The translations under genes were made by a program, and so were the position numbers. The notes under the pieces were generated by a model that was not told the origin of the DNA, did not search any database, and worked only from the letters and a program-made list of their open reading frames with translations. Shown one piece after another: positions 2,589 through 23,800 of a stretch of 42,384 bases of DNA. This stretch comes from a virus. The stretch covers positions 1-42,384 of the IMG/VR virus record IMGVR_UViG_3300038318_000271; one strand, written 5' to 3'. The stretch's first letter is position 1. Every line of letters starts with the position of its first letter.

Positions 2589-3767
2589 TTACCATGCGCC
2601 GGTCTCCGCGAACACTTTGTACGCAGGGATATCGGCTTTCCGGGCGGATTTGACCTCCATCTTTGTTATCGTGACTGGATTGTTGCGCCCATCACCACCA
2701 TAAGTCGCTTTTATGACGATGGTGTCTCCCGCTTTACCCCCGCCAGTTGTATCAAATGTTTTATATAAATCTTGATATGCATTCATACTCCCCGTTCCAA
2801 TTTGCACCCCGTTCCGCTCTACAACAAACTCGATTCCGATCGTGTAATTAGATGATGTCTTAGTAATCCCAATTCGGAGATTCGAGTCAAATTCAGTCGA
2901 ATAATCTGCTGGGATTGTAAACGACACAAGCGTTTTCGATTCCGTGGAATTGATGACAATGTTGGGGGTAAATGTTTTTCGCACAACGTCTCCTGGGACG
3001 TCAACGAACCCCGTCCGGGCACCGATGTTCCCGGTCTGGTTCTGGAGCGCCCCGATGTTCACGATATCCTGCCCCTGCCAGTTTTTCGGGCCGTCGATAT
3101 TAATATCCGAGATCCCAAATCCCCCGATCTTTGCCGCGAGTTCTGAGTCCACATATCCCTTCCGCGCCGCGTCCGTCGCTGCGCTCGGCACGGGGAGCTC
3201 CGTCAGCGCCTGCCCTTGCATGTTCACCGGGGCGACCACTTCCAACTGTGAGGAGGGCACATAGGCCGGGCACGCCACGCCGCAGAGGGACGCATCCCCC
3301 CGCTCGTCAGTGATCTTCGCGGGTAGGATCAAGGTAGCCCCTGCATCCACCCGGACCTGCGCGAGCGAGAGTTCCCAGGTCTCCGCCGTCCGGGTCAGGG
3401 CCGGCGCGGCGGGCTCCGGGGCAGCGGTCCCGGGCTTCACGACGATATCGATCGTCCGGCCGGGAGAGGCGTTCAGTCGCACGACTACCCGATCGATCCG
3501 GGGGTAGGTCGCGTGGGCCGTCGGCACCGCCAGTGTCAGCGCCGCATCGTTCTCGCAGAACCGGCCCTGCACCATCGCGGTCCCGGTCCCGACCAGGACG
3601 GTCATCGCCGGCGGGTCCGTCACCGTGACGGCCATCTCGTTCCCGTCCTCGTGGACGATCCCGTCCCGGATCTGCTTAGCCATCATCCTGCACAGGAGCG
3701 CCGCGGAATACACCCGGTCGGGGTTCTGCGGATCGCTCACGTCGAAAATGCCAGTGTTCAAGGTCAT
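2589..3767 (-). CDS. Tail fibre / receptor-binding protein (distal)
   Basis: Last gene of the tail operon, ATGA-coupled to the upstream gene. The N-terminal domain is typical of siphovirus fibre/baseplate proteins. The C-terminal ~150 aa are encoded by visibly lower-G+C DNA. Confidence 0.6.
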   Translation of the reverse strand: MTLNTGIFDVSDPQNPDRVYSAALLCRMMAKQIRDGIVHEDGNEMAVTVTDPPAMTVLVGTGTAMVQGRFCENDAALTLAVPTAHATYPRIDRVVVRLNASPGRTIDIVVKPGTAAPEPAAPALTRTAETWELSLAQVRVDAGATLILPAKITDERGDASLCGVACPAYVPSSQLEVVAPVNMQGQALTELPVPSAATDAARKGYVDSELAAKIGGFGISDINIDGPKNWQGQDIVNIGALQNQTGNIGARTGFVDVPGDVVRKTFTPNIVINSTESKTLVSFTIPADYSTEFDSNLRIGITKTSSNYTIGIEFVVERNGVQIGTGSMNAYQDLYKTFDTTGGGKAGDTIVIKATYGGDGRNNPVTITKMEVKSARKADIPAYKVFAETGAW

Positions 3768-5200
3768 CGTCTTGTCTCCGCGTTATCTCGCTTCACGGTC
3801 CGGAGCAGGCTGATTAAGTCTGGCCACTCCTTCCCGAGCCCGAGCACGATCTTGCCGCTCGGATACTGTTCGGTCACGGCGACGATCCGGGCCTGCATCG
3901 TAGCAACGCCCGGATACTCGGCGCTCACGATATCGCCCAAATCAAAATCAGTCATGTAGCGGTAGGTCGGGGTCGGGAGATACTCGACCTCCAGGGTCGT
4001 CGTCTCGCCCCGGTCCGCCAGCAGCTCCTGCCCCCGGGCCGTCAACTCGTCAGTCGTCGCAAGGTCCCGGGCGTCGATGTAGACCTCGCGCCGACTCCAC
4101 CCGGTCGCCGTCCCGACCTCGGTGATCGTCCGGAGGTCTGCCTCTCCCTGCCCGGCCACGATCGCCAGGGTCGGGGCGTCCGAGAGGCAGGCCCGGTAGC
4201 CGGCGATCAGGCAGTTGCCGAGCCTCGGAGAGAGCAGGATCTCGGCGGACCGGTCCGCCCCCTCCAGCGCGTCGAAGAGGATCTCGCCGGTGTCAGGGGA
4301 CCAGAGGATGCCCCACCCGAGCCCGGACTGGAGGGCGATGGATTCCAGGATCTCCGGCAGCGATTGGAACCGGGCCCGGACCTGCACCATCGCCCCTCTG
4401 CCCTGGTCAACCAGCATCAGGTCGAGACCCGGGATCGCCCTGTCTGGGTCGGTCGGATTAACCGCGTTTACCTCGACATAGTGGCGCATGGCCGTCTCCG
4501 CGATGGCGTCGATCTGCTCGTCGTAGCCGGTGCCGGCAGAGACCCCGTGCAGGCAGATCCGGTCTTGCAGGATCGCGCCGAGGTCCCGGCCCGCGACCGT
4601 CCACGACTCTGATATCTCTCCCTCGTCGGTCATCTGCCCTTCGATACTCTCGATGGTGCCGACCAGGTGCCGCCCCCGGCGGGGAAGGGAGATGAACCGG
4701 CCTTCCCGGAGTTCGTCTGCCCCCGTCGCATACCGAGAGATCACGGCCTGCCAGGACCCCGGACCCCGCCACCGCCGCGTCCACTCGACCGCCTCGTAGG
4801 CATCGATCACGGCCTTGAGCACGAGCGTGCTCCCGGACCGCTCGTAGACCCGCAACGGCTCCGGCGGGGTGTCCTCAGGTTCGAGCGCCGGCCCGATCTC
4901 CATCTGGAAGTATCCAGCCGCCGGGAGCGTGGTGGCGGTCCCGTCCCCCCAGAGCAGCCGGACCTGCACATTGTAGGTGCCCGGGTGCACAGTATCCTCC
5001 GGGCCGAACGCACAGAGTAGCGCCCCGGTTGCAGCGTCCTCGACGGTCATCGGCTGCCGAATTTGCCAGCCGGAGTACCGGGCATGTATGGCATACAGCG
5101 TCGCCATCACGCCGGCGAGAGGGAGGGGGTCCGCCCCCCGCGACAGGGTCAATCGGTAGAGTGGCCACGTCCCGGCCTGGGCGATGGTGATGTCGGTCAT
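3764..5200 (-). CDS. Tail-associated structural protein (Sipho_Gp37-like) with an N-terminal Ig-like BppU_N-type domain
   Basis: 478 aa. The motif block RWRGPGSWQ...GRFISLPRRGRHLVGTIESIEG resembles the ReqiPepy6 Gp37-like family (from memory). The N-terminal 110 aa are paralogous to the product of 5197..5529. Confidence 0.6.
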   Translation of the reverse strand: MTDITIAQAGTWPLYRLTLSRGADPLPLAGVMATLYAIHARYSGWQIRQPMTVEDAATGALLCAFGPEDTVHPGTYNVQVRLLWGDGTATTLPAAGYFQMEIGPALEPEDTPPEPLRVYERSGSTLVLKAVIDAYEAVEWTRRWRGPGSWQAVISRYATGADELREGRFISLPRRGRHLVGTIESIEGQMTDEGEISESWTVAGRDLGAILQDRICLHGVSAGTGYDEQIDAIAETAMRHYVEVNAVNPTDPDRAIPGLDLMLVDQGRGAMVQVRARFQSLPEILESIALQSGLGWGILWSPDTGEILFDALEGADRSAEILLSPRLGNCLIAGYRACLSDAPTLAIVAGQGEADLRTITEVGTATGWSRREVYIDARDLATTDELTARGQELLADRGETTTLEVEYLPTPTYRYMTDFDLGDIVSAEYPGVATMQARIVAVTEQYPSGKIVLGLGKEWPDLISLLRTVKRDNAETRR

Positions 5201-6164: not shown

Positions 6165-6167
6165 GGC

Positions 6168-6461
6168 TTACACCCCTGCTGCCATCGCCCATCCGAGGAT
6201 CTCGCTTTCTGCCGAAGCCAGGTAGGCTCTCCCGGCGTCCGTGAGGACCTGCCGGGATCCCTGCCGTTCCAGGTACGCCGGTGACGGCAGCGCCCACCAG
6301 ACCACTTTCTCCCGGTATTCATACTCGGGGCGCGTGCCCATCTCGTCCTCGATCTCAACCTGCCGGATATCCCAGCGGCAAAGGATCCTGACGGATCCGT
6401 TCTTGACTACGTCGATACCGATCGCCGTCGGCTCGACGGTGCTTCTAACCAGTTTGGACAT
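6168..6461 (-). CDS. Hypothetical protein (tail module)
   Basis: 97-aa ORF. Its 5' end overlaps the RT 3' end by 55 nt. Confidence 0.5.
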   Translation of the reverse strand: MSKLVRSTVEPTAIGIDVVKNGSVRILCRWDIRQVEIEDEMGTRPEYEYREKVVWWALPSPAYLERQGSRQVLTDAGRAYLASAESEILGWAMAAGV

Positions 6462-7498
6462 TTGATACCCTTCATTTCTACAGCATAGTCAACAGCGGTA
6501 CGGATCGCGGGGTTCTCGTAGAGATACGTCCGCGCAAAGTTGTAACAGTCACAATGTTTCAGCCACCCATGATACGCTCCTAACGAGCCCAGGATCTCGT
6601 CTGGGTTCATTGTCTGGTAGTTCTGCTCAATCTCGCGAACCCGCTTCTTGAGCCGCCGAGCGGAAGATTTTCTGAGGATCGTGTGCGTCCTAAACGAACG
6701 GTACCCGAGGAAGTCTACTCCGCATCGGTCGACCGGAAAGATCGATGTTTTCGGGTTCAACTTGAGCCCGAGCGTGTCGAAGTACTCCTCGATCCGGGGG
6801 AGGAGGTCCTGCAACCACCCCTTATCGCGATGCAGGATCACGCCATCGTCACAGTACCGAATGTAGTATCGCGCCCGAATTTTCTCCTTTAGCCAATGAT
6901 CAAACGGCGTCAGGTACAAGTTGCTGAAGTACTGGCTCAAGTAATTCCCGATCGGGACCCCGGCGTTCGGGGTGCTGTAGATCACGTTTCGGAGGATGCC
7001 GAGTACTCCCGGATCCTTTACGGTCCGTTGCACGATCTCGAATAACTTGTCCGGCCGAATTGATGGATAGAACTTCGATATGTCAAATTTCAGGCAGTAC
7101 CGGGTCTGGTCGGCATTCTTCAGGAACCGGTGGAGCCGATACGAGCCGGCGTGCAGCCCCTTCCCCGGGATCGCAGAGAACAGGCCGTGAATGAACAGCC
7201 GGTCCCAGATCCGCCGCATCACCTGCATGATCGCATGGTGCACGACCCTATCGGGGAGATACGGGAGTTTGAAGATCACCCGCTGCTTCGGTTCGTAGAC
7301 AATTTTCGTCGTGTAAGATGACGTCGTGAACGTCCCGCTGATGAGGGCCTCCTGGAGGTCTAAGAGGTACGGGTCCGGGTCGGCATCAACCATCCGAACA
7401 GCCTCGTAGTGCCCCTTCCCCTTACGGGCGTTCAGGTGCGCCAGGCGGAGGTTCTCTATCGAGACAAGCGTCGAGAAGAGGTTGCCCTGGCGTTTCAT
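6407..7498 (-). CDS. Diversity-generating retroelement reverse transcriptase
   Basis: RT motifs include the DGR-specific PIGNYLSQYFSNLYL (I/LGxxxSQ) and the catalytic YCDD. Lies immediately 3' of the TR. Confidence 0.93.
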   Translation of the reverse strand: MKRQGNLFSTLVSIENLRLAHLNARKGKGHYEAVRMVDADPDPYLLDLQEALISGTFTTSSYTTKIVYEPKQRVIFKLPYLPDRVVHHAIMQVMRRIWDRLFIHGLFSAIPGKGLHAGSYRLHRFLKNADQTRYCLKFDISKFYPSIRPDKLFEIVQRTVKDPGVLGILRNVIYSTPNAGVPIGNYLSQYFSNLYLTPFDHWLKEKIRARYYIRYCDDGVILHRDKGWLQDLLPRIEEYFDTLGLKLNPKTSIFPVDRCGVDFLGYRSFRTHTILRKSSARRLKKRVREIEQNYQTMNPDEILGSLGAYHGWLKHCDCYNFARTYLYENPAIRTAVDYAVEMKGIKCPNWLEAPSSRRRSVST

Positions 7499-7643
7499 GC
7501 CGACCCCCGCAGCCCTGCCGACAGAGGAGAGCGTTCCGCCGCTCTGCAGGTACTAACACCCCTCTGCGGACCGGTTGTGTTTTTGACCCCAGGATGTCCG
7601 GGATTCGGGTCTGTGCGCTGTTCAGGGCCGCCCAGAGGGTAAG

Positions 7644-7762
7644 GTCTGAGCTCGACGTGGGTGCAATTGTTCCGATTGGAATTCGTCGGACTGTTATTCG
7701 CATTCCGGTAGCCGGGTCCTGCATTCAGCGCATTGTTCCAATTGCCCCCTGCATGCAGGATA
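7644..7762 (-). repeat. DGR template repeat (TR)
   Basis: 115-119 nt aligned to the VR. On the coding strand it is rich in AAC/AAT codons (GGNWNNALNAGPGYRNANNSPTNSNRNNC). It sits 145 nt upstream of the RT start. Confidence 0.93.
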
Positions 7763-7822
7763 CCCGGGGAGCCCCCACGTTTACGCGCACGAACCAATCT
7801 CATTGTACGTTCTTCTCCTCCT

Positions 7823-8044
7823 TCAAGTTAACGTGAAGTAGCGGTTGATTTTCTTGATCGTTGCGAGGAACGGTAGGTGTTCCTGGTATCGCTCCAACTG
7901 CTCGGTAAGGACCTGAGATCCCGTAAAGATCACATGTTTCTCGTCATCTATCTCAAATTGGATGGTGGTGTACAGTCCGTCTTCCTTGAACTGGCTTTTC
8001 TGGCCGGCTCTGAATGCAGTGATCAGGATCTCCTTGTTGAGCAC
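7823..8044 (-). CDS. DGR accessory-position ORF (73 aa, not Avd-like)
   Basis: Sits between the target gene and TR, where avd normally lies. Low G+C. Short and apparently beta-rich rather than a ~120-aa basic helical bundle. Confidence 0.55.
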   Translation of the reverse strand: MLNKEILITAFRAGQKSQFKEDGLYTTIQFEIDDEKHVIFTGSQVLTEQLERYQEHLPFLATIKKINRYFTLT

Positions 8045-8105
8045 ATCCTCAACTCCCCACTTTTTACCGTCAAGAGCAGGTTTCTCATTTGAGAACTCTG
8101 AAAAT

Positions 8106-9662
8106 TTAGGATGCGTGGGGCAATCCCTCCTCTAATTGGCGGAGCTCGACGCGGGCGCAACTGCCCCGAGAGGAACTCGTCGGACCGTTATACGCATCCC
8201 GGTAGCCGGGCCCCGCAACCAGCGCACCGTACCAACCGCCCCCCGCACGCAGGATATTTCCGTTCGCCGTAACGGCGTACAACTGATCTGTGAGATACGT
8301 GTCCGAACTTCCGCTTGTCGCGGACGGTATGAACGCAAGCCCCGCAAGATCGTCGTGGAGCAATCCTGAGATATACCCGGTTGTCGTCGCCATCCCAGTG
8401 CCTGCCTCGTAGGACCCGTCGGCCAGCGTGCCTGCCAGAGTGCCGAGACCGTCCCTGCGGATCAGGCGGAAAGACCCATCAAGGTCGACGTTTGTCCCGA
8501 TGATGAATTTCCAGGTGTTCCCGTAAGGGTTTTCGATCCCTCGCCAGCAGACCGGGGTCTGCCCGTTGACTTCATCCCCAGTGCCGGTGCCGTTCTCGGC
8601 GAGCCTGGAGTCGATGTTGTCTGCCCCGGTCAGTTTCCCGGCGAAGTTCTCGCCGGTCGGCAGATCGACGATCCCCTTGCCGAGTGCGGTCTGGATGTCG
8701 AACGTACCGTACTCAATATACATCAGGAGTTGGTCCGCACAGTAGCCCCAGAACGATTCGCAGCCGGCGTTGCCGGGCGAGATTCGGGAGGCGTAGAGTT
8801 CGGCATCGTCGATGTGGAATCTGCCACTGTTAGGCAGATCCGAATAGGCTACCCCCCCGGTGATAGGGATTTTTCCGGAGGCGGAACCGAGCCGGAACTC
8901 CCCGTTGTAGATGAGCCCGTACGACTCGTAGGCGCCGCCGTACATGTATGGGGCCGGGACCCCGCCGCCCCGCATGTAGAAGTACGGGTGCAGCGAGAAC
9001 CCTGCAGCCGGCCGGGCAGAGACCCACCGGCGGGCAAGGTCAGTGCCGTCGTCGAACTCGTGTTTGGCGTAATAGGCTGGTTTCCGGACGAGCACGTCGC
9101 CGGCGGTACCGTCGAGGGTCAGGCCGTCACCCCGGGCGTTTGCACCGAACGAGATCTGTGCGGTCGCCCGGTCCCTGACGCAGCGCCACCGGCCGCCGAA
9201 GACCAGATGCCGGTCGAAGAAGTCGGGCGAGATCGCTTCGATCTCGTGCCCGAGCGCGTCGATCCGGGTCAGGGTCGGTGACGAGGACATGGTATCCCAT
9301 TCGATCCCGATGATCGGGGAGTTTTTCGCCGAGATGACGTCGATCTGCGCCTGAGCACTCACGGCCCGCTGCTGCAACGAATTCATATCGTACGCTGCAA
9401 TCCCGCGGAACACATACGTCCCGGCGGGCCAGGTCGCGGTGGGAGTGCCGGGGAGTTTGACGACTCCGATCAGGTTGTTCCCGTCCTTCGCGGCGTACCG
9501 AAACTCCCCGGAGACGGCTCCCGAGAGACAGGCGATGTTTGGGGCGTCGGGGGTTTTCGCCGCGTCGACAACAGTCATCGTGGCAGCACCAGTCGTGTAT
9601 GGTGCTGCAAGAGTGGTGTAGGGGGACCCTACCTGCGCAGGATAGAGGTCAGGTAATCCCAT
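8106..9662 (-). CDS. DGR target protein: tail fibre/receptor-binding protein with a C-terminal C-type-lectin/FGE-like variable domain
   Basis: 518 aa. Contains CWRGIENPYGNTWKF and a C-terminal GGGWYGALVAGPGYRDAYNGPTSSSRGSCARVEL that carries the VR. Located just after Dit. Confidence 0.9.
   Translation of the reverse strand: MGLPDLYPAQVGSPYTTLAAPYTTGAATMTVVDAAKTPDAPNIACLSGAVSGEFRYAAKDGNNLIGVVKLPGTPTATWPAGTYVFRGIAAYDMNSLQQRAVSAQAQIDVISAKNSPIIGIEWDTMSSSPTLTRIDALGHEIEAISPDFFDRHLVFGGRWRCVRDRATAQISFGANARGDGLTLDGTAGDVLVRKPAYYAKHEFDDGTDLARRWVSARPAAGFSLHPYFYMRGGGVPAPYMYGGAYESYGLIYNGEFRLGSASGKIPITGGVAYSDLPNSGRFHIDDAELYASRISPGNAGCESFWGYCADQLLMYIEYGTFDIQTALGKGIVDLPTGENFAGKLTGADNIDSRLAENGTGTGDEVNGQTPVCWRGIENPYGNTWKFIIGTNVDLDGSFRLIRRDGLGTLAGTLADGSYEAGTGMATTTGYISGLLHDDLAGLAFIPSATSGSSDTYLTDQLYAVTANGNILRAGGGWYGALVAGPGYRDAYNGPTSSSRGSCARVELRQLEEGLPHAS
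8138..8256 (-). repeat. DGR variable repeat (VR)
   Basis: Hand alignment to the TR gives 22 mismatches in 115 nt, every one at a TR adenine on the coding strand (T on the plus strand). No indels. Confidence 0.93.
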
Positions 9663-10010
9663 CTACGCCACCGCCGGGAGGGTGATAGTCAGCACCACGG
9701 CGCCGGCATCGGCCGCCAGGACCAGGAGGAGGGGTTCGACACTCTCTGCAGCAGAGAGTGGGTCTCCCCCGCTCACGGCCTCGTAGAGCCGGACCTGCTC
9801 GATCTGGCAGGGCAGGGTGACGTCCGCCCCCGTAACCGGTAGCGAGAACGTCATCGGCGTGACGCCGGCAGCCGACGTGCGGTGCGATGCCAGAGCATAC
9901 CTGGCACAGGCGGCCGATCCGTCGCCCGTCTGAAGTTCAGCATACCATTCGATCACGGGCGTGCGCTCGCGGAGCGCCTCATACCCGTCTGCGTTGAGAT
10001 TGACTGTCAT
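9663..10010 (-). CDS. Hypothetical tail/baseplate protein
   Basis: 115-aa ORF packed between Dit and the DGR target. Confidence 0.6.
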   Translation of the reverse strand: MTVNLNADGYEALRERTPVIEWYAELQTGDGSAACARYALASHRTSAAGVTPMTFSLPVTGADVTLPCQIEQVRLYEAVSGGDPLSAAESVEPLLLVLAADAGAVVLTITLPAVA

Positions 10011-10012: not shown

Positions 10013-10891
10013 TTAGACTCCTGTATAGCGGGATGCATACTCGATCGAGACCACGACGCTCCCGCTCGGCGTCGAAAAGGTCACGATGTTCTCACCCGGC
10101 TGCAACTGCCAGAACGTCGAGTCTGACGACAGGTACTGCATGGCGTTGGTCTGGGTGCCGTTCGCGGCCTGCAGCCGGCAGAGCAGGTTGCCGTAGGCGG
10201 TGTCGATGAGGATCGTCTGTCCCTCCAGGACATCCAGCGTCAGGGCGATCTGCTCCCCTGTCGTCAGGTTCTCCACGACCGGGTTCAGGCAGGGGCCGGG
10301 GATCTCAATCCGGATCGGGGCGGCGATATCGCCCTCGTTGACGACGATCATCGTCGATCCCATCGCCGCGAACGAGGCCGGGAATGAGGCCGGGAACGCG
10401 AGCCCGCCGGTCAGCCCGGCGAGCGGCAGCGTGGTCGCGGCAGCGTCGAACCAGCACGGGTCCGGCGCCTGCAGGTCCACCACGACTTCCTGCCAGACCC
10501 GGCCCTGTGCCTGCCGGCCGGGAGTGAACGAGGGCGAGCCGGAGAGGGCCACGCACCGGAGCGCATACTGCGTCCCGTCTTCCTGCGTCCAGACAAGGGT
10601 GCCGGGGGCGTAGCGAGGGTTGAAGGCCGCGGCGATCCGCCGGCGCTTCTGCTCGACTCCTGCCCGGTCCGGTGCGAGGAGGAGGAACCGGACCATCAGC
10701 GTGCGGGGCGAGAGCCGGACGGTCTGCAGAGTCGTGCCGTCCTGGTAGGCTCCCCGCCGGGTCTGGATCTCGTTGTCGGTGCCGCCGAACCCGTCGCTAG
10801 AGAGGTAGTGGAACATCGGCTCGGGGGCGGCCTGTGACGGGTCTGCGATCACCAGCGTGTCGCCGTTCGCGGCGAACCAGGTCAGGTGCAT
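10013..10891 (-). CDS. Distal tail protein (Dit, Sipho_tail family)
   Basis: Lies immediately downstream of the tape measure gene with a 1-nt overlap. Size and N-terminal sequence are typical of siphovirus tail component proteins. Confidence 0.75.
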   Translation of the reverse strand: MHLTWFAANGDTLVIADPSQAAPEPMFHYLSSDGFGGTDNEIQTRRGAYQDGTTLQTVRLSPRTLMVRFLLLAPDRAGVEQKRRRIAAAFNPRYAPGTLVWTQEDGTQYALRCVALSGSPSFTPGRQAQGRVWQEVVVDLQAPDPCWFDAAATTLPLAGLTGGLAFPASFPASFAAMGSTMIVVNEGDIAAPIRIEIPGPCLNPVVENLTTGEQIALTLDVLEGQTILIDTAYGNLLCRLQAANGTQTNAMQYLSSDSTFWQLQPGENIVTFSTPSGSVVVSIEYASRYTGV

Positions 10892-13668
10892 CAGAGCACC
10901 ACCTGTGTCCCGATGTTCCGGAGGGTGCGTTTCGTCGTGTTCATCATTGTCGAGGCGTCGGCGGCCGGGGAGTTGACCACGAGATCACCCTGGATTACGA
11001 CCCCGGGCGAGCCCCATCCGGGCGGCCGGTGCAGCGAGGTTGCCAGGTCGCCGGAGACTTCATCCGGCACGGCCGGGCCGGCCTCTGCGGCTGCGGTCGT
11101 TCCTGCACCCCCGGCCACACTGGCAGCGGACTCGGTCGCGACCCCAAACGCCGGCGAGGCGTAGGACGGCGTCTGGATGTCGAGTTTGGGGATCTGCGGC
11201 AGACCGCCGATCGGGTTGCCTCCCTCGTCGTACTCGACGTGGTAGGTTCGGGCGATGGCTGGGTTGTCGTTTACATACTTGACGTATTCCGCCCAGTTTG
11301 CAGACTTGACGTCCAGCGCCTCGTTTTCTATCTGGCTCATCAGGTTCTCGTGGGCGATCTGCGCCTCCTCCCGCTTCTCCAGCGCAACGTCGAGTTTCTC
11401 CTGCTCGTCTTCGAGCATCTGGCTGATCTCGTCAAGCCGCGCCTGGGCGCTGGAGACACTCTCGCCGTTCAACTCAGTCTCGATATCGATCCGCTCCTGC
11501 TGCGCGGTGCTTGCTGCATCGAGTGCATCTTGATACCGATCCTGCGCGTCGGCTACATCGAGCACCGCCTCCCGCTCCCGGAGGAGGAGGTCTTCGAGTT
11601 CCCGCTTTGCGTCGGCGTCGCCGCCCGCCGCCTCCGCCCGCTTCTGCTTGATCTCTTCCCGGAGGTCGACAAGGTCGCGTTCTGCCCGGATACGCCGGAT
11701 ATCGGCCCGCTCGACCTCACGATTAGCATCCTCGATCTCGTCGTCGATACCGAGCGCCCGGTCGATCGTTTCCTTGAGTGCGTCGTACTCTTTCTGGAGC
11801 CCGGTGACTTTCCTCTGGTGCGCCGTGACGGCCTTCGACGCCTGATCGTATGCGGTTTTTGCCCCGCTTGCGAGTCGTCGATTGGCGGTCTCGGCCTCCC
11901 GCACCGCTTGGGCTGTCCGATTCTCGGCGAGCTCCAGATCGAGCGCAGAAAGTCGGGCGTCCTTCTGCGCCTGGTTTAGGTCCCCAAGGGCAAGTGTGCC
12001 ATCCTCCATTGCGTCGGTCGTGCCGCGAAATTCCTTGGTGAGGTCGCCGGCGGCGAGCTTATGCCATCCGGTGGCCTCGGCCGATCGCCGGGTGGATAAC
12101 GTCTGCCGGTCCGTGGCCGGGGTATACTGCGACCGGAGGAGGTCGATCTGCCTTCTGATCTCCTGCTCCCGCTCCTTAAGTACCCCGACCTCATCCTCGA
12201 TCTCCTCGGTCGTCTTGCCGGTAAGATCCATCGTCTCCCGAAGCACGGTGTTATACTCCTCTTGGGCTTCGGTGGCGTCCCCCGTGGACGCGATCAGCGG
12301 GAGGAGCACGGCCCCGAGGGTGGTAACCCCAATAATGGCCAGTCCTAGTGGGTTGGCCATGATGGCGCCCGTAAAGCCCTTGGTTGCGATCGTGGCGGCG
12401 ATGGTCGATGCCTGATAGGTGCGGTAAAGCGTGATCGTTGACCCTAGGGAGCCGGCGAGTGTACCTACCGCCCAGATCGCCGGCCCGGTCGCGGCGGCGA
12501 AAAGTCCAGTGGTGACGATCACTCGCTGCGTCCCCTCGTCGAGGTTCGAGAGCCAGTTGGCAAGGCTTGTCGCGCCATCGATCGCGGGCATGATGGCCTC
12601 AGCGATGAGGTCGCCGAACGTGATGTTGAGGGTCTCAACGGCGCCCTCCAGTTCGCGGAGGGATCCGCCGACGCCGCCCTCCATCGTCTCGGCCATCCGC
12701 AACGCGGCGCCGTCGCAGTCTTCGAGGGCGGCGGTATATTTCTCAATACCGTCACCGCCCGCTCGGATCAGGGCGAGCATCGCCGGCCCGGCCCGGTCGC
12801 CGAAGAGCGTCATGGCGTCACCGGTGGAGAGACCTGCAGCGCCGAGTGTATCGATGATCTCGGCGAGGCTGTGTACCTGCGGGTCGACGTCGGCCGCGGT
12901 TAGGCCGTAGGCTGCGAGAGTGTCTGTCGCCTGTTTTGTCGGCGCGAGGAGTGATGATAGCGCCCCTCTGAGCGCCGTGCCGGCCATCGTGCCCTGAATG
13001 CCGGAGTTGCTCATCACCTGGATAGCAGCGGTCGTCTCCTCGATCGAGAGCCCGGCAGACGACGCGACCGGCCCGACATAGGCCATCGCGTGCCCGAGCT
13101 GCTCGACGGAGGTGTTCGACGAGGACGCTGCCTGTGCGAGCACGTCTGAGACATGGGCGAGGTCGCTCACCTCCAGGTTAAACCCGGAGAGGACGTTGGT
13201 GGAGATGTCGGCTGCGACCCCCAACTCCATCGCCCCGGCAGACGCGAGGCTGAGCATCTGCGGCGTGGCCTCAAGGATCTCGTTCGTCGAGAGCCCGGCC
13301 ATACCGAGATACTGCATGGCGGCGGCGGACTCGGACGCGGACCAGGCGGTTGAAGCGCCGAGGTCGATCGCCTGCTGTCGGAGTCGGTCGAACTGGTCCC
13401 CGGTAGCCCCCGTGACGGCGGAGACCTTCCGCATGGAGTCGTCGAAGTCGGCGGCAGTCTTGATCATCAGCCCTCCGGCAAGAGCGAGCGGAGCGGTCAC
13501 CTTCAGCGAGAGGTCGGAGCCGACGCTCGTCAGGGATTTGCCGATGCTCTTGAGGTCACCCTCAAACCCTTCGGTCTGCTTCTTCGCTTCCTCGTAGGCT
13601 CGCGTCAGCCCGGCGATGTCGCCGACGATCTCGACGACGAGTTTTCCCGCGACGGTCTCACCGGCCAT
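10891..13668 (-). CDS. Tail tape measure protein
   Basis: 925 aa. The N-terminal third has the TP901-type TMP core (VSAVTGATGDQFDRLRQQAIDLGASTAWSASESAAAMQYLGMAGL). Central transmembrane-like and coiled-coil regions. Confidence 0.92.
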   Translation of the reverse strand: MAGETVAGKLVVEIVGDIAGLTRAYEEAKKQTEGFEGDLKSIGKSLTSVGSDLSLKVTAPLALAGGLMIKTAADFDDSMRKVSAVTGATGDQFDRLRQQAIDLGASTAWSASESAAAMQYLGMAGLSTNEILEATPQMLSLASAGAMELGVAADISTNVLSGFNLEVSDLAHVSDVLAQAASSSNTSVEQLGHAMAYVGPVASSAGLSIEETTAAIQVMSNSGIQGTMAGTALRGALSSLLAPTKQATDTLAAYGLTAADVDPQVHSLAEIIDTLGAAGLSTGDAMTLFGDRAGPAMLALIRAGGDGIEKYTAALEDCDGAALRMAETMEGGVGGSLRELEGAVETLNITFGDLIAEAIMPAIDGATSLANWLSNLDEGTQRVIVTTGLFAAATGPAIWAVGTLAGSLGSTITLYRTYQASTIAATIATKGFTGAIMANPLGLAIIGVTTLGAVLLPLIASTGDATEAQEEYNTVLRETMDLTGKTTEEIEDEVGVLKEREQEIRRQIDLLRSQYTPATDRQTLSTRRSAEATGWHKLAAGDLTKEFRGTTDAMEDGTLALGDLNQAQKDARLSALDLELAENRTAQAVREAETANRRLASGAKTAYDQASKAVTAHQRKVTGLQKEYDALKETIDRALGIDDEIEDANREVERADIRRIRAERDLVDLREEIKQKRAEAAGGDADAKRELEDLLLREREAVLDVADAQDRYQDALDAASTAQQERIDIETELNGESVSSAQARLDEISQMLEDEQEKLDVALEKREEAQIAHENLMSQIENEALDVKSANWAEYVKYVNDNPAIARTYHVEYDEGGNPIGGLPQIPKLDIQTPSYASPAFGVATESAASVAGGAGTTAAAEAGPAVPDEVSGDLATSLHRPPGWGSPGVVIQGDLVVNSPAADASTMMNTTKRTLRNIGTQVVL

Positions 13669-14830: not shown

Positions 14831-15211
14831 TTATACCTCCAGGTAAGTTACGCTGAGATCGACAGGGATCCAGTAGATCCCGGTCGTCTCATCGTGGTCG
14901 TCATGCTGTCCGAGATAGCGGACCTGTTCGATTCGTGCACCGTCCCGGACGCCTCGGTAGCCGTGCAGGGCGCACCGCACCGCGTCGGCGAGGTCGGCGA
15001 CGGCGCGCCACGATTCCGCCATGCAGGTGTACTGCATCCGTGCCTGCACGAGCCCAGTCAGGCTATCCTGCGGGCGGCTGATCATCTGGTAGATAATCGC
15101 CGGGACCGTCGGCTCTCGCGGGAGGTGCATCTGGTAGGCGCGGGCTCCGATCAGCGCAGCGACGTCAGGATCGGCGACAAGGATAGATCGGAGGACAGAC
15201 TCAATCTGCAC
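14831..15211 (-). CDS. Tail completion/terminator protein (DUF3168-like)
   Basis: N-terminus LRSILVADPDVAALIGARAYQMHLPREPTVPAIIY matches the DUF3168 pattern (from memory). Synteny supports it. Confidence 0.6.
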   Translation of the reverse strand: MQIESVLRSILVADPDVAALIGARAYQMHLPREPTVPAIIYQMISRPQDSLTGLVQARMQYTCMAESWRAVADLADAVRCALHGYRGVRDGARIEQVRYLGQHDDHDETTGIYWIPVDLSVTYLEV

Positions 15212-15638
15212 GAGCCGCCCTCCTCGCTACAATGTCCGCGACCGCGCCCCGGAACTCTTCCACAGCGGCACCTTTGTTCTCGTCGAGCGCTGGCCGGATG
15301 TGCGGTCGGGCGGCCTGGTTGTAAAACCGTCCGAGCACGTCGCGGCCGACGAACCCATACTCGAGCCGGGGACCCTGTGGCTGATCGTTCCCGACGATGA
15401 CCGTGCACCGCTCAGGGGTTTTCTCGACGGTTTCCAGGTGCCACCCGCGGCGGTAGGTGCCGGTCTTGTAGGGGGTGCGGCCGCCCTCCGGCTCGGTGAT
15501 CCGCACCTGGTTGAGTACCAGGAGCGCCGCCGCCCGGGTGGCTGCTTCGAGCGCCGGCCCCCGGATGTCGTCGGCCAGGGAGGCGAAGGCCTTCGCGAGG
15601 TCCTTGCCCCCCTTGAGGGTGATCCCCGGGCTGCTCAT
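15201..15638 (-). CDS. HK97 gp10-family neck/tail component
   Basis: Sequence pattern ...TGTYRRGWH...RLEYGF...ARPHIRPALDE is typical of the HK97 gp10 family. Synteny supports it. Confidence 0.65.
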   Translation of the reverse strand: MSSPGITLKGGKDLAKAFASLADDIRGPALEAATRAAALLVLNQVRITEPEGGRTPYKTGTYRRGWHLETVEKTPERCTVIVGNDQPQGPRLEYGFVGRDVLGRFYNQAARPHIRPALDENKGAAVEEFRGAVADIVARRAARAD

Positions 15639-19403: not shown

Positions 19404-20206
19404 GTTGATGCCCTCCTGCGGTACAGGATGGCGCACCGGCACCCGGGGAACCGGGGGGCGTGCTGGTGGCCACTCGGAAACGGTTCGTCGACCGAGATCC
19501 ATCCCGTCTGCCCGTTCGTCCGACACCCGTCAGAGACCCGGTCGTCGCCGACGGTGCTCCACGACTTTTCCATCTCCAGGCCGACCGCCGCCATCTCGTC
19601 GACGACGAGCCGGTTCCCCTCCTCGTACGCCTCCGCGGCTTCCGTGACCGCGATCAGCTCGGCCCGGTTGCGGATGTGCGCCTGCGGTTTGCCGACGCCA
19701 AACTCTTCGTACTTCGCGACGATCTGCCGGGCGACCTTCTGGTAGTTGTAGCCCTCCTCCATCCCCTGCGTGACGATCCGGGCGATCTCCTCGCGGGTGG
19801 TCGCGTCGATCTCCGTGACCGCAGCGGCCGCACGGTCTTTGATGGCGGCGACCGCCCGGGGGTTTTTGAGGTCGAATGCATAATCGACGCCGAACTCCGC
19901 GACCCGGTGCCGAGCGGCGGCGGCGATAGCTGCTCCGGCCGCCTCCTCGATCGGGCCGGTGAAGAGATCGAGCGTCGTCTGGTAGGCAACTTCGAGTGCT
20001 CCCTCGATTACAGGCGGGATACTTGCCTCGCCGAGGATCCTCGGGCCGAGCCGCTCGAACTCCCGCATGAAGGCGGCCCGGTGTGCCCGGAACGCCTTCG
20101 CCATCTGCCGGGTGAGTTTTGTCTCGATAGGTTTGAGTGCCCGGTCTCGCTTCCAGATCTTCGTCAGGGTGGCGATGTTTTCGAGGAGGTCGCGGAGCGA
20201 GGTCAT
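19400..20206 (-). CDS. Minor head morphogenesis protein (Mu F / SPP1 gp7 family)
   Basis: C-terminal block ELIAVTEAAEAYEEGN...WSTVGDDRVSDGCRTNGQ...HPGCRCAILY-type motif. Lies directly after the portal gene. Confidence 0.8.
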   Translation of the reverse strand: MTSLRDLLENIATLTKIWKRDRALKPIETKLTRQMAKAFRAHRAAFMREFERLGPRILGEASIPPVIEGALEVAYQTTLDLFTGPIEEAAGAAIAAAARHRVAEFGVDYAFDLKNPRAVAAIKDRAAAAVTEIDATTREEIARIVTQGMEEGYNYQKVARQIVAKYEEFGVGKPQAHIRNRAELIAVTEAAEAYEEGNRLVVDEMAAVGLEMEKSWSTVGDDRVSDGCRTNGQTGWISVDEPFPSGHQHAPRFPGCRCAILYRRRAST

Positions 20207-21807
20207 GCCGCCGCCTCCCGGAGGTATGCTTCCAGTTTCCCGATCGCCGTCGCGAGCGCGGCCTCGCTATCCGCCGGCGGCTGCTCCTCACCCTGCGGGA
20301 ACCACTCGTCGACGAGGTCCTGCGCGTTCGGATCCCCGAGCGCATCGAGGAGGAGTTTCGTCAGGTGCCGGACCGGGATCGTGCCGGCGACCGGAGCCCC
20401 TTTGAGCGTGCCAGCGTGGACAATAGCATCGACCATCTCAAGGGGGTCGTGCTGCAGGATCGGCGGGAACTTGACCTCGACTTTGCGATTCATCGGCTCC
20501 CCAGTCTCCGGGTCCTTGCCGAGGGTCACGATCCGGTCGCCGTCATCGTCGATCTCGATCGTCGCACCTGCACGGAGCGGGCCGGATGGCACCATCGCTG
20601 CCTGGTCAACGATGTAGCCGAGGATATTGCCGAGGACCGAGGACCAGAGCGATTGCCGGGCGGTGAACTGGAGCTCCATCGGCCGCTCCATCGATTTGGC
20701 CGTGGCGAGGTTGCCGGTGCTCGGGTCGCCGGTGAGGTAGGGCTCGTTGATGCCGGTCGCCGAGCAGACCATCAGCATCAGCCGGCGGGCGTCGTCCATG
20801 CTCGTGGTGATGCCAGAGGTACGGATCGGTTCCAGTTTCGTGCCCGGTGTCGTGGCCAGGATGCCGCCGACCTGCCCGCCGCTCTGCGCCCGGGCCTCGG
20901 CAAGATTCTGCTGCAGGCTCGGGAGCATCGCCTGGAGTTTGGAGACGGCACCAGTGACGGCCTTCTTGTTCGCGCCGGTGAGCTGCATCGCGAACTTACT
21001 GAGGGCGTCGATGATCGTGACCCACTTTTCGAGGAACACCTTGTAGGCGTTCGCCCAATCGCAGGCCGCGTACATCTCGGAGACGCCGAACTGCATGTCG
21101 TCAAGCCGGTTGACGCTGACGTGGTAGATCGGGGTGTCCGCCCGGACCGGGATGCCGGCGATGTGCGAGGGGTGGCCGCCGGTCGGGTTATAGCGCCAGT
21201 CAGGGTAGTAGGCTTTGTGCTGCTTGACTTCGCTCACACTGGTCGTGGGGTTGTATGTCGTTGAGGTCCAGACGCGGAGGTAGTACCGCGGGTCCTGGGC
21301 GTCCTCGGGGTTGGCGATGATGGCGGCGATCTCGTCGAACGGGATCGTCCGGATCTTGACATGGCCGGTGCTCGGATTGACGAAGAACACGAAGAAGAGG
21401 TTCGCGAAGAGCTGAAGTCCTGTCTCCAGCCGCATCCAGGCTTCGACGTCGCCGAAGACGGTTCGGTTCGTCGGGTCGGTGAGGACCCGCTGCACGACAG
21501 TGTCGACGGTCGGGTGCGTTGCCCGGAGGGTTGCCCCCTGCCCCCACACGTAGAGGCACTGGACGGCGACTGCCCGCTTGATCAACGGGTTCTTGAGCCA
21601 CCTGAGCCTGACCATCTTCGAGAGCGCCCGGAGCCCTTCGCGGCTGAAGTCGCGGTCGCTGCCGCCGATCCGCTGCCACCCCTGCTCGCCGAGCTGATCT
21701 TCCAGGACAGCGAGCCGCTCGGTCAGGAGTTCGTAGTTGTCGAGGACTGCGACGACCTGCTCGGCGAACCGCTGCAGGTCGTGTTGCGGGGCAGCGGCGG
21801 CGCTCAC
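20203..21807 (-). CDS. Portal protein
   Basis: About 534 aa, upstream of the MuF-like gene. Start proposed at the GTG at 21807, preceded by GGAGGGG and GTGA-overlapping the upstream stop. The maximal ORF extends to the ATG at 21930. Confidence 0.8.
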   Translation of the reverse strand: MSAAAAPQHDLQRFAEQVVAVLDNYELLTERLAVLEDQLGEQGWQRIGGSDRDFSREGLRALSKMVRLRWLKNPLIKRAVAVQCLYVWGQGATLRATHPTVDTVVQRVLTDPTNRTVFGDVEAWMRLETGLQLFANLFFVFFVNPSTGHVKIRTIPFDEIAAIIANPEDAQDPRYYLRVWTSTTYNPTTSVSEVKQHKAYYPDWRYNPTGGHPSHIAGIPVRADTPIYHVSVNRLDDMQFGVSEMYAACDWANAYKVFLEKWVTIIDALSKFAMQLTGANKKAVTGAVSKLQAMLPSLQQNLAEARAQSGGQVGGILATTPGTKLEPIRTSGITTSMDDARRLMLMVCSATGINEPYLTGDPSTGNLATAKSMERPMELQFTARQSLWSSVLGNILGYIVDQAAMVPSGPLRAGATIEIDDDGDRIVTLGKDPETGEPMNRKVEVKFPPILQHDPLEMVDAIVHAGTLKGAPVAGTIPVRHLTKLLLDALGDPNAQDLVDEWFPQGEEQPPADSEAALATAIGKLEAYLREAAA

Positions 21808-22283
21808 GGCGTCCCCTCCGCTCTCAGCGTCAGCCAGGCGTAGTATCTCCGGTGCCAGAACGGCACGTCGACCGATCCGCAGAAGCGCGGCCAGAGCGCC
21901 CACAGGAGCCTCTGCAGGGGCGTCTGCCACTCCGCCGTGAGATACTCCATGTCATCCGCCGGCTGCCCGACCGCGTGTAGGAGTTCGTGCCAGAGTCGGA
22001 GGATCACCACGGCATCCGAGTCCTCCGGTCGGACGCGGATGGCTGCCCGGAGATCCATCCCGCCGCCGAGAGCCCGAGCGGGGATCGCGTCGTCGAATAC
22101 GTAGGCGTCGCCCGCGTCGACCGGGAACGGAAACCCGTTCCAAGTCTCGTCGGGGGCAAAGTAGCGGATCTCCGGCGTCCCGGTCCGGACCCCGAACTGG
22201 AAGAACGGCGGAATCTGCGGGAGGAGAGGGACCAACCTCCGCCGCAACGCCTCGGTCTTGAAGTAGATGACAAAGCAGGGCAT
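21804..22283 (-). CDS. Small HExxH zinc-metallopeptidase-like protein
   Basis: 159 aa starting from the ATG at 22283. Contains the motif LWHELLHAVG. The track ORF extension to 22382 runs through the tRNA-like element. Confidence 0.55.
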   Translation of the reverse strand: MPCFVIYFKTEALRRRLVPLLPQIPPFFQFGVRTGTPEIRYFAPDETWNGFPFPVDAGDAYVFDDAIPARALGGGMDLRAAIRVRPEDSDAVVILRLWHELLHAVGQPADDMEYLTAEWQTPLQRLLWALWPRFCGSVDVPFWHRRYYAWLTLRAEGTP

Positions 22284-22297
22284 TATACTCCTCGAAA

Positions 22298-22370
22298 AAC
22301 CGCCGGAGGGACTCGAACCCCCTGCCCCCCGGTTACAGATCCGGCGCGCTGCCGGTAGCGCCTCGGCGGC
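22298..22370 (-). tRNA. tRNA-like gene with a non-canonical anticodon arm
   Basis: Hand fold: acceptor GCCGCCG/CGGCGGU, D arm GCGC-UACCGGCA-GCGC, T arm GGGGG-UUCGAGU-CCCUC. The anticodon arm has only a 4-bp stem CCGG/CCGG with an 8-nt loop AUCUGUAA. Followed by TTTTT. It fills a 95-nt intergenic gap. Confidence 0.5.
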
Positions 22371-22378
22371 GGTTGTGC

Positions 22379-22627
22379 TCATGCCTCGGGCTCCGCCTGC
22401 ACGACCGCGAGCCAGTTAGTCCCGGCTGTGACGATCTCGCGGACCTCGTCCTCGGTTATCTTGCCGTCGTCGATTGCATCACAGATGACGTCGACGGCGT
22501 CCCGGGTCGCGTGCACCGCACGGAGCGCCCTGCGCCCCCACGCCCGGCCTGCGAGCGCGGAGAGGGTAGCGGTCCCGGCGATCGCGGCGACAGGGATGAG
22601 GAGATCGAGGGGGAGTGCCTCAATCAT
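22379..22627 (-). CDS. Small membrane protein
   Basis: 82 aa with an N-terminal hydrophobic helix LLIPVAAIAGTATLSALAG. Confidence 0.55.
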   Translation of the reverse strand: MIEALPLDLLIPVAAIAGTATLSALAGRAWGRRALRAVHATRDAVDVICDAIDDGKITEDEVREIVTAGTNWLAVVQAEPEA

Positions 22628-22920
22628 TCGCCCCTCCCGGACCCGACGACCTGCCCGTCACGGATCACGTAATACCCGCCCGGATACCGGAGGGTGAAGG
22701 AGGTTGCGCCGGCGGCCTCGTACTGCTCGATCTGCTCGACAAGCGATGCCTGGATCTCCTTGGTGTGGCCGTCGAGGACAAAGGAGCGGACGGCCGGAGA
22801 GATCGGACGCGGGCCGGGCGAGGTGCTCGGGGGCGCGAGAGGGTCCGGGGGCGTGGACTGGGAGAAGAGCGCGCGGATTGCCCCAAAGAGACCGATTATT
22901 AAGGATATTAGTTTCGACAT
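22624..22920 (-). CDS. Membrane-anchored protein with a Pro-rich linker
   Basis: Start refined to the ATG at 22920 (MSKLISLIIGLFGAIRALF...). First gene after an AT-rich promoter-like region. Confidence 0.55.
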   Translation of the reverse strand: MSKLISLIIGLFGAIRALFSQSTPPDPLAPPSTSPGPRPISPAVRSFVLDGHTKEIQASLVEQIEQYEAAGATSFTLRYPGGYYVIRDGQVVGSGRGE

Positions 22921-23029
22921 GTCGTTGGCCTCCAAAATACCGTTGCGGAGATTATAGACGCTCAAATACTTAAAGGGGCGAGAATTTTAAAATCTTAAAA
23001 AAGTAGGGGTTTTAAATAGTAGGATACTT
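22921..23029 (-). promoter_or_regulatory. AT-rich promoter-like intergenic region ahead of the membrane-protein/head operon
   Basis: Contains several TATA-like boxes on the minus strand (tttaaaa, ttttaaaattc, tataatc). It contrasts sharply with the flanking G+C-rich DNA. Confidence 0.4.
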
Positions 23030-23047
23030 CCCGGCAGTATTGCCGGG
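23030..23047 (-). terminator. Hairpin downstream of gene 23051..23443
   Basis: cccggca-gtat-tgccggg forms a perfect 7-bp stem, followed on the minus strand by T-rich tracts. Confidence 0.4.
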
Positions 23048-23050
23048 ATG

Positions 23051-23443
23051 TCACTCGCCGCGGGCCGGCTCGATCAGCGCGTGGATCGCGTCGGCCATCG
23101 TCTCCCCGTAGCGCATATGGGTCGCGAGCCGGTCGCGGTCGGCGCGGTAGATGCGGATGTTGACGTATTTTTGAGGTAAGTACTCGTCAGGAAGAGATAT
23201 AAGGTCATCTTCTGTGATCTCAAGCCCGTTCCCCTCCTGAAGTGAGTCCAGAATCTCGCTCTCCATGAATATGAAATACGGTCGCTCAGCCTCGGCTCCA
23301 GCAAACTTGAAGTATTCCTCTAATGTCATGTTTGGCCGGTCCATGTGATCGATCCTGATGTTATCGAGCGTGAGGGGATTTTGCCCCTCCTGCACATCGA
23401 GCCGGATACCATACTCGTATCCCTGCGAGTTCTTAAAAATCAT
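23051..23443 (-). CDS. Hypothetical protein (accessory island)
   Basis: 130 aa with visibly lower G+C than the genome. No motif recognised. Confidence 0.6.
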   Translation of the reverse strand: MIFKNSQGYEYGIRLDVQEGQNPLTLDNIRIDHMDRPNMTLEEYFKFAGAEAERPYFIFMESEILDSLQEGNGLEITEDDLISLPDEYLPQKYVNIRIYRADRDRLATHMRYGETMADAIHALIEPARGE

Positions 23444-23800
23444 TTAGATCGCCTCCCGCACCTTGCTCGCGACCTGCCCGAGCATCTCAGCCGGGAACCC
23501 GGTTGTCTCAAGGTCCGCACCCACCTGCTTCATGACCCACGCCGCTGTCGTTAGCGCGGTGCTGGGCGCGATCTTCTCCCAGATGAACGGCTTGAGGTAA
23601 TAGCTGTTTCCGGCCTCCTTCAACTGGCTCTTCGGAACCCAGACCTCTTTCTCCCGGCCGGTCGCGAAGATGTTGTATCCGGACCCGGCGATCTGCGGGG
23701 CGCGGATCAGGATTGCCTTCTCAGTCTCTTTCAGGAAGGGGAACACGATGCAGATATCCCCGTGCTTTGTGGTGGTTTTCAGTCCAATGGTTTGAGTCAT
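23444..23800 (-). CDS. Hypothetical protein (accessory island)
   Basis: 118 aa. Preceded by an AT-rich intergenic region containing a palindrome. Confidence 0.6.
   Translation of the reverse strand: MTQTIGLKTTTKHGDICIVFPFLKETEKAILIRAPQIAGSGYNIFATGREKEVWVPKSQLKEAGNSYYLKPFIWEKIAPSTALTTAAWVMKQVGADLETTGFPAEMLGQVASKVREAI

Follow-up and report, generated by a model that had tools for sequence, protein, structure and literature searches.

The window analysed here, the whole 42,384-nt stretch (positions 1 to 42,384) of IMG/VR virus record IMGVR_UViG_3300038318_000271, carries a diversity-generating retroelement (DGR) on its minus strand. The element consists of a gene for a receptor-binding tail protein that bears the variable repeat (VR) at its 3' end, a small accessory gene, a template repeat (TR) and the gene for a reverse transcriptase (RT). 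A preliminary description, made from the letters of the DNA, had proposed a complete DGR targeting a tail protein, and this proposal holds: the RT, the TR/VR pair and the 3'-terminal VR are all present and intact. We consider it very likely that this is a complete DGR, carried among the tail-tip genes of a temperate Methanoculleus siphovirus that is related to Methanoculleus virus Blf4. The principal features of the cassette are:

6407-7498, minus strand: DGR reverse transcriptase, 363 amino acids (RVT_1, PHROG 1423, PDB 8ub7)
7648-7762, minus strand: TR, with 33 adenines, identical in the window and in contigs L008/L014, L012 and L013
7823-8116, minus strand: accessory gene, not Avd; the open reading frame (ORF) as called has 73 amino acids and starts from GTG (7823-8044)
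8106-9662, minus strand: target gene, encoding a 518-amino-acid receptor-binding tail protein (PHROG 5302, AlphaFold2 fold)
8161-8256, minus strand: diversified part of the VR, target codons ~470-501

Template and variable repeats

On the minus strand, the TR (7648-7762) and the VR (8142-8256) form a gapless 115-nt direct repeat with a spacing of 494 nt, and the homology ends abruptly on either side. As in other DGRs, the two repeats differ (almost) only at adenines of the template. The 115-nt core contains 22 mismatches, 22/22 of which fall on TR adenines; 11 of the 33 TR adenines are unchanged, and none of the 82 non-adenine positions is mismatched (Fisher's exact p = 8.6e-16). The recount is identical to that of the preliminary description, and the pair of TR- and VR-encoded peptides given there is reproduced exactly by translation. 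When the comparison is extended to a 119-nt span, two A-to-C differences are added beyond the core (CAGAC in the TR, CCGCC in the VR), and the changes from TR adenine to VR nucleotide comprise 17 A>G, 4 A>T and 3 A>C.

The positions of the template adenines are strongly biased with respect to the reading frame: 30/33 occupy codon positions 1 and 2, which is the AAY design typical of DGR templates. The VR had been taken for the last ~40 codons of the 518-residue protein. Its location at the 3' end is correct, but it codes for residues ~470-507, and an invariant tail of 11 residues follows it.

Reverse transcriptase

The RT belongs to the DGR clade by its sequence motifs. An adjacent RT with IGxxxSQ and YCDD motifs had been noticed at the outset, and the ORF at 6407-7498 does contain IGNYLSQ, which conforms to the [I/V/L]GxxxSQ signature, together with YCDD as its YxDD box. 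In DGR RTs, the [I/V/L]GxxxSQ motif is found in place of QGxxxSP (PMC7826257). The protein matches RVT_1 with an E-value of 1e-18 and PHROG 1423 with an E-value of 3e-112. Its best match among solved structures, which extends over the whole length, is 8ub7 (E = 3.6e-41), a 328-residue 'Reverse transcriptase' whose sequence in the alignments is that of Brt (bRT) of Bordetella phage BPP-1; group II intron RTs match at about E = 1e-15. The window RT and BPP-1 Brt are 33% identical end to end. Furthermore, R73 and I183 of the window RT align with R74 and I181 of bRT, two residues that promote adenine mutagenesis (PMC7826257). Assignment of the protein as a group II intron, Drt3a or retron RT was rejected, as its NCBIfam matches to such RTs lie far below the cut-offs; this collection contains no DGR RT model.

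Variable repeat alleles in related viruses

The target protein and a degenerate TR pattern, in which every A was replaced by N, served as queries to retrieve related contigs, designated here by L numbers. Over metagenome and viral collections the degenerate pattern finds only three loci, so alleles are few, and allelic diversity was taken from consensus contigs of different samples, not from reads. Five VR alleles can be compared in this way (window, L008, L012, L003 and L007). The TR is 100% identical in four contigs (window, L008/L014, L012 and L013), and the VRs that accompany it are different. L008 has an accessory gene identical to that of the window and a VR that differs at 18 positions, 18/18 of them TR-adenine sites. 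Between L012 and the window there are 16 differences in 1,762 nt outside the VR and none in the 115 nt of the TR, as compared to 19 in 110 nt of the VR; every one of these 19 (19/19) is again a TR-adenine site. Across the five alleles, 25/33 adenine sites are polymorphic as compared to 1/82 other sites (p = 2.6e-17), the single non-adenine change being found in L007. At six adenine positions, the five alleles all share one and the same substitution.

The population variation that had been predicted for this element, confined to TR-adenine positions of the VR and accompanied by an invariant TR, is thus present in the assembled contigs. The occurrence of different VRs among near-identical contigs that share one TR indicates that the element has been active in this viral population, and its activity appears to be recent. 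The arrangement also extends to more distant lineages. A provirus of Methanogenium cariaci (L004) and a contig of Methanoculleus UBA77 (L002) show the same order of target, accessory gene, TR and RT, and both have adenine-specific TR/VR differences of their own (17/18 substitutions at A in L004).

These counts bear directly on an explanation in which the VR differences arose by ordinary mutation with diversifying selection or recombination, next to an RT of an unrelated kind (group II intron, retron or defence). Such an explanation would be in line with the hypervariability and mosaicism that receptor-binding tips often show, with the exchange of the entire distal module in comparison with Blf4 and with the sub-threshold group II intron, retron and Drt matches that NCBIfam yields for the RT. 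However, neither selection nor recombination can confine differences to the adenines of a second, non-coding copy (25/33 versus 1/82). The NCBIfam matches are all far below the cut-offs, bRT is the best structural relative of the RT by 25 orders of magnitude, and a search of the cassette against Rfam finds no RNA family, group II intron and retron RNAs included. We regard the explanation as extremely improbable and effectively already refuted.

Target protein

The target begins with an N-terminal anchor of ~105 residues, continues as a long helix and ends in a C-type-lectin/FGE-like domain, which bears the VR. At the level of sequence it matches PHROG 5302 'tail protein' (E = 2.9e-37); searches of Pfam, NCBIfam and the PDB with the sequence give no match, and only structure prediction was informative there. 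More than 200 homologues are found, some of which contain the Pfam domain Mtd_N. An AlphaFold2 model derived from 43 homologues has a mean pLDDT of 82. Its best fold matches are TaqVP (PDB id: 5vf4, E = 1.7e-9), the FGE-like protein PvdO and Mtd (PDB ids: 1yu0-1yu4), in agreement with the C-type-lectin/FGE fold that the preliminary description had anticipated for the C-terminal part. The model supports the assignment of the target as a DGR-type C-type-lectin variable protein that is closest to TaqVP and Mtd. The VR lies at the 3' end of the gene, within the predicted C-type-lectin fold, as in other DGRs, in which a C-type-lectin or Ig-like fold accommodates the variation. Residues 1-~110 resemble the N-terminal anchor domains of tailspikes in fold. 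The first 105 residues are 75% identical to Blf4 QXM18644, and the remainder of the two proteins is unrelated.

Candidate cis-acting elements

Four further features of the cassette are candidates for a role in cis or overlap with such candidates. They include a candidate initiation of mutagenic homology (IMH) element in the VR and its counterpart in the TR (IMH*):

8138-8160, minus strand: candidate IMH, 3'-terminal in the VR (TTGCGCCCGCGTCGAGCTCCGCC); the stretch is rich in G+C and does not vary between VR alleles
7644-7666, minus strand: candidate IMH*, 3'-terminal in the TR (TTGCACCCACGTCGAGCTCAGAC)
7499-7647, minus strand: conserved 149-nt spacer that separates the TR from the start of the RT and presumably forms the 3' part of the DGR RNA
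7495-7803, minus strand: open frame of 102 codons over the TR and the spacer, the TGA of which overlaps the RT ATG (ATGA)

Four 3'-terminal positions are G or C in all VRs and A in all TRs, as checked across the window, L008, L012, L003, L007, L004, L002 and L006. They correspond to TR positions 101 and 105 (GCACCCAC versus GCGCCCGC) and to two positions just beyond the core. The four 3'-terminal mismatches are best read as fixed differences between IMH and IMH*, not as fresh mutagenesis, and the 23-nt G+C-rich ends of the two repeats (VR 8138-8160, TR 7644-7666) are taken as candidate IMH and IMH* by analogy with BPP-1.

The spacer has a mean column identity of 86% across three lineages in which the RTs are ~74% identical. 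A hairpin at 7586-7604 shows compensatory changes, with double changes at three predicted pairs among three sequences. The folding energy of the spacer RNA is not significantly different from that of shuffled sequence (z = -0.32). Since the energy is unremarkable, it is conservation and the three covarying pairs that speak for structure in the spacer, and they hint that it may form an RNA hairpin. The open frame over the TR and the spacer (101-102 codons) is kept with its ATGA overlap in L004 (7880-8188) and L002 (5808-6113). In all three lineages its first residues are M-x-L-[AV]-R-A-R, encoded upstream of the TR, and every gap in the alignment has a length divisible by three. The frame, which may or may not code for a protein, could couple translation to that of the RT; alternatively, it could have come about as a side effect of RNA constraint on a G+C-rich sequence.

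An accessory protein distinct from Avd

The most interesting lead of this analysis is the helper protein encoded between the VR and the TR. Its homologues are 97-109 residues long; for the comparison with known accessory classes the protein was taken at 95-109 residues with an isoelectric point (pI) of 5-9. The window protein would have ~97 residues if the part upstream of the called start were included. This upstream in-frame sequence (PKFSEFSNEKPALDGKK...) aligns with the N-termini of the homologues, back to an ACG codon at 8114-8116 that is preceded by AGGAGG at 8126-8131. An in-frame ACG is found at the position of the ATG of distant homologues in the window, L004 and L006, and probably also in L002, which is partly N-masked. 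The ACG at 8114-8116 may be a non-canonical start codon of the accessory gene, and viruses of Methanomicrobiales may translate the protein from a conserved ACG codon. An alternative is an internal ATG or GTG, located 5-7 codons before LNKE, that would give a protein of 73-78 residues.

The AlphaFold2 model of the accessory protein (pLDDT 80) is a β-rich small barrel with one helix. Fold matches in the PDB are weak and mostly to OB folds; the best ones in BFVD are to domains of proteins annotated as RT, including an RT of a crAss-like phage, and to single-stranded DNA-binding proteins. Avd is a basic helical bundle. Identification of the accessory protein with Avd was rejected on the basis of its β-rich model and of an hhalign comparison with BPP-1 Avd, which gave a probability of 0.5%. 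The name 'ribosomal protein L31', assigned to it by JGI, is spurious, as the match to Pfam L31 (E = 0.037) is below the cut-off.

Nor does the protein fit any of the other described classes of DGR accessory factors. Compared by the descriptions of the four classes Avd, HRDC, MSL and CH1 (PMC5758913), and not against the 'PAG1-4' candidates of that paper, it has no HRDC or MutS_I Pfam match and is not an acidic CH1 protein of 160-169 residues. According to Wu et al. 2018, 26-29% of DGRs have no known accessory gene (PMC5758913). A profile search for the accessory family returned 964 representative clusters. In four of the longer profile matches the accessory domain is found at the C-terminus of RVT_1 proteins, and in 13/13 loci with a visible neighbourhood an RT adjoins the accessory gene. 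Seven of these loci are in bacterial metagenome-assembled genomes (MAGs; Desulfovibrio, Nitrospirae, Deltaproteobacteria, Fibrobacterota and others), while the other RT-adjoining loci include the ANME-1 virus ANMV-1 (AJP62065.1) and the Methanosarcinales virus vir525. An archaea-specific family was likewise rejected, since members occur in Desulfovibrio, Nitrospirae, Spirochaetaceae and other bacterial MAGs. Of note, the ANMV-1 figure shows an 'Avd' arrow (PMC4372165) that may or may not stand for the accessory homologue, and GenBank lists the homologue as a hypothetical protein.

From the linkage to RT genes and the fusion with RT domains, we infer that the accessory protein is probably an RT cofactor that acts in place of Avd. 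It is conceivable, and we put this forward tentatively, that it represents a fifth, uncharacterised class of DGR factors that replaces Avd, is spread over archaeal viruses as well as bacteria (~1,000 clusters at 50% identity) and is occasionally fused to the RT. If this were true, there would be Avd-independent DGRs with a dedicated cofactor of their own, in which priming and template handling would be unlike those of the BPP-1 paradigm. As a non-Avd accessory protein common to ANMV-1 and hundreds of bacterial DGRs, it is a candidate cofactor of the 'Avd-less' DGRs.

Gain and loss of the module

Comparison of the window with Blf4 by blastn delimits a region that has no counterpart in the latter:

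6166-9381, minus strand: module of 3.2 kb without Blf4 counterpart

The module contains the distal four-fifths of the target gene, the accessory gene, the TR, the RT and an ORF of 97 residues. At its site, Blf4 carries an unrelated segment of 1.47 kb, and no RT, TR or accessory homologue is found in the Blf4 genome. Because the module is absent from Blf4 and the N-terminus of the target is shared, the DGR moves together with the domain that it diversifies. The receptor-binding protein of Blf4 (L112 16581-18068) ends in ...ALRGGNFGRGANCSLASL...VNADIGFRGVC, with GNCWEW inside. It gives a weak match to FGE-sulfatase (E = 0.14) and looks like the C-type-lectin C-terminus of a DGR target. This protein may itself be a former DGR target.

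Several relatives of the window virus have lost parts of the cassette. L007 has a clean deletion of the segment equivalent to window 6478-7952 (break at 7362/7363), L003 is without ~6595-8137 of the window (break at ~2042-2083), and L006 keeps only the ends of the cassette (3717-4587). These are independent losses of the 3' part of the accessory gene, the TR and the RT that left frozen VRs. In L004, which is the same provirus as L009 (M. cariaci JCM 10550), the RT has a frameshift near codon 301 (~9085; tblastn matches at 8185-9084 and 9087-9275), due to either a pseudogene or an error in the draft assembly. All four (L007, L003, L006 and L004) retain a VR-bearing target. L003 (CAZSUO010000236.1) is a 2.3-kb contig that was binned in the MAG 'uncultured Coriobacteriaceae bacterium'; this binning is probably wrong.

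The preliminary description had named disruption of the RT in relatives that keep an identical VR as an observation that would speak against activity. The RT is indeed disrupted in some relatives, but their VRs are not identical to that of the window. Since the VRs of the RT-less relatives differ from it, activity of the element in the window virus is not refuted by these losses.

Present state of the cassette

A number of observations weigh against a complete element that works at present. Neither of the two components that would mark an Avd-dependent DGR of the BPP-1 type is found: no ORF of the cassette matches Pfam bAvd (PF22296 / PF05635), a profile with which BPP-1 Avd itself gives an E-value of 7e-36, and when the DNA that flanks the VR on its 3' side was folded for four lineages, no conserved hairpin was seen after the VR, where BPP-1-type elements have a hairpin or cruciform that enhances homing; z-scores were +1.2 to +2.4 in three of the four. 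For the conserved N-terminal portion of the accessory protein, the window offers neither ATG nor GTG nor TTG as a start. The VR is unchanged among the window, L010 and L011, which possibly belong to one population. The loss of the TR and the RT in several relatives indicates that the cassette is dispensable, and the consensus contigs bear on the population, not on the rate or the current activity of the element in this exact genome.

Some of these observations would also be expected if the cassette were a recently silenced fossil, in which the VR was diversified in the past and which no longer works owing to a lost accessory start or to missing host factors. The missing ATG, GTG or TTG would be the lesion in such a fossil; yet the ACG that takes the place of the ATG has been retained in three or more diverged lineages (the window, L004 and L006, with L002 as a probable fourth), which argues for function and not for a recent lesion. 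The identical VR in three assemblies (window, L010 and L011) fits a silent element, but differences at ~19 VR sites are already seen between genomes whose flanks are ~98% identical, and the TR is 100% conserved over four contigs whose flanks differ by ~1-3%. Decay is common in the lineage, as shown by the deletion of the TR and the RT in L007, L003 and L006 and by the RT frameshift in L004; the RT ORF of the window, in contrast, is intact and has all catalytic and DGR-specific residues. We consider a silenced fossil very improbable and retain the reading of the cassette as a complete and recently active DGR.

Virus genome, gene neighbourhood and host

The two ends of the window are identical over 161 nt (1-161 = 42224-42384, a direct repeat), which indicates that it represents a complete circular genome of ~42.2 kb. 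It encodes a large terminase, a D5-type primase-helicase, RecT, a Dam-type methylase and a tyrosine integrase. The integrase, the gene content and the terminal repeat together point to the complete genome of a temperate tailed virus. The genes that surround the cassette include:

10891-13668: tape-measure protein (Pfam PhageMin_Tail; PHROGs)
10013-10891, minus strand: Dit, distal tail protein (Pfam SPP1_Dit/Sipho_tail; PHROGs)
9663-10010: ORF of 115 residues between Dit and the target
3764-5200: Gp37-like tail protein (Pfam Sipho_Gp37; PHROGs)

The order of the tail-tip genes is tape-measure protein, Dit, 115-residue ORF, target, accessory gene, TR, RT, three ORFs that are small or uncharacterised (two lie in a region homologous to Blf4) and Gp37-like protein. 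With Dit, the tape-measure protein and the Gp37-like protein as its neighbours, the cassette sits in the tail-tip module. The target is thus not located just after Dit, as first described, because the 115-residue ORF (9663-10010) intervenes.

Nucleotide identity to Blf4 is ~84% over the aligning regions, which make up ~40% of window 1-25000, and the same level is found in the aligned parts of window 20000-25873. The backbone genes, the nucleotide similarity and the Methanoculleus host agree with membership of the Blf4-like siphoviruses (Flagovirus/Pungoviridae). In contig L010, which comes from an ENA metagenome, identity to the window extends to position 85, beyond which the contig continues into genes whose products are 82-92% identical to those of Methanoculleus. 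The chromosomal side of this junction carries a small ORF and fasciclin-domain genes, all Methanoculleus-like, and no tRNA gene is found at the junction. This junction between virus and host places the host in the archaeal genus Methanoculleus, which produces methane. Positions 15322-15398 of L010 match the repeats at both the start (161-85) and the end (42384-42308) of the window. This shared stretch of 77 nt may contain the attachment site.

Two further observations concern other parts of the genome. Contigs L010 and L011, which are 15.4 kb long, are otherwise identical to the window, and all 84 substitutions are concentrated in window 14840-15363 (524 nt, ~16% divergence). This divergent stretch in the tail-completion region is a small recombination patch. 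At 22298-22370, on the minus strand, both ARAGORN and Rfam (35.7 bits) report a tRNA-like gene, to which ARAGORN gives an undetermined identity and the four-base anticodon 'ctgt'.

A proposed mechanism

In the scheme that we infer for this element, which involves an RNA intermediate, a role of the accessory protein, a function of the IMH and an effect on host range, a transcript that contains the TR and the conserved downstream spacer would be made first. The RT, probably together with the OB-like accessory protein in lieu of Avd, would copy this transcript into cDNA and misincorporate nucleotides opposite template adenines. The cDNA would then replace the VR in the 3'-terminal part of the gene for the receptor-binding protein, and the fixed G+C-rich IMH in the VR, as opposed to IMH* in the TR, would give the exchange its direction. 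As a result, ~20 AAY-type codons would be rewritten on the C-type-lectin fold's ligand-binding face, and the host surface structure to which the virus can bind might change.

Comparison with known systems

The cassette is similar in its overall plan to the mtd-avd-TR-brt element of BPP-1. Both have the order of a target with a 3'-terminal VR, a small accessory gene, a TR, a spacer and an RT. They share a C-type-lectin target, adenine-only differences, fixed differences between the 3' ends of VR and TR (candidate IMH and IMH* in the window), and RTs that are 33% identical over the full length and carry the same motifs. The accessory proteins are different: BPP-1 Avd has a pI of 9.6 as compared to ~6 for the window protein, and it is a helical bundle, unlike the β-rich fold predicted here. 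Also unlike BPP-1, the window element has no detected post-VR hairpin, its host is an archaeon, and it resides in a siphovirus with the target near Dit.

ANMV-1 (KP703175; PMC4372165) is an archaeal virus with a DGR that likewise diversifies a tail-associated protein. It has an accessory homologue (AJP62065.1, 41% identity, E = 1e-16) and a related RT. Its gene order is different (target-TR-RT-accessory), its RT is only ~30% identical, and its target AdtA has no sequence similarity to the window target at E = 1e-4. Closer RTs, 41-45% identical to that of the window, are encoded by Caudoviricetes sp. vir525 (Methanosarcinales, BK063673) and vir215 (Methanomassiliicoccales). In vir525 the accessory homologue directly follows the RT, and a tail-protein gene is located upstream. 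The window is set apart from these two viruses by the order to which its host belongs, by the arrangement of its genes and by the family of its target.

The preliminary description had supposed that, if the host were an archaeon, this would be one of relatively few DGRs on archaeal viruses. The archaeal host is confirmed by the similarity to Blf4 and by the L010 junction with Methanoculleus. The rarity was overstated, because ANMV-1 and GenBank viruses assigned to Methanosarcinales and Methanomassiliicoccales carry related RTs. In this respect the DGR itself is of a known kind, and the widespread non-Avd accessory family is the more novel lead.

As for the target, TaqVP of Thermus aquaticus (5vf4) is the best structural match to the model (E = 1.7e-9, probability 1.00). 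The two proteins are 16% identical with a TM-score of only 0.36-0.49, and the window target has an N-terminal anchor and a helix in addition to the shared fold.

The closest relative of the virus as a whole is Blf4 (Flagovirus limi, MZ171369), with which it shares its backbone at ~84% nucleotide identity over aligning head, tail and replication regions. Blf4 was described as lytic (PMC8540584), and the window genome encodes an integrase. The distal receptor-binding domains of the two viruses are unrelated in sequence. The comparison with Blf4 presents the DGR as a 3.2-kb module that travels with a receptor-binding domain, and among the other relatives the TR and the RT have been lost repeatedly, with a frozen VR left behind. 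To our knowledge, DGRs of archaeal viruses have been documented, few have been examined in detail and none in a cultivable system; Blf4 is, as far as we know, the only isolated Methanoculleus virus, and its host is in culture. The close kinship of the window virus to Blf4 offers a realistic route to test DGR-driven switching of host range in a biogas-relevant methanogen.

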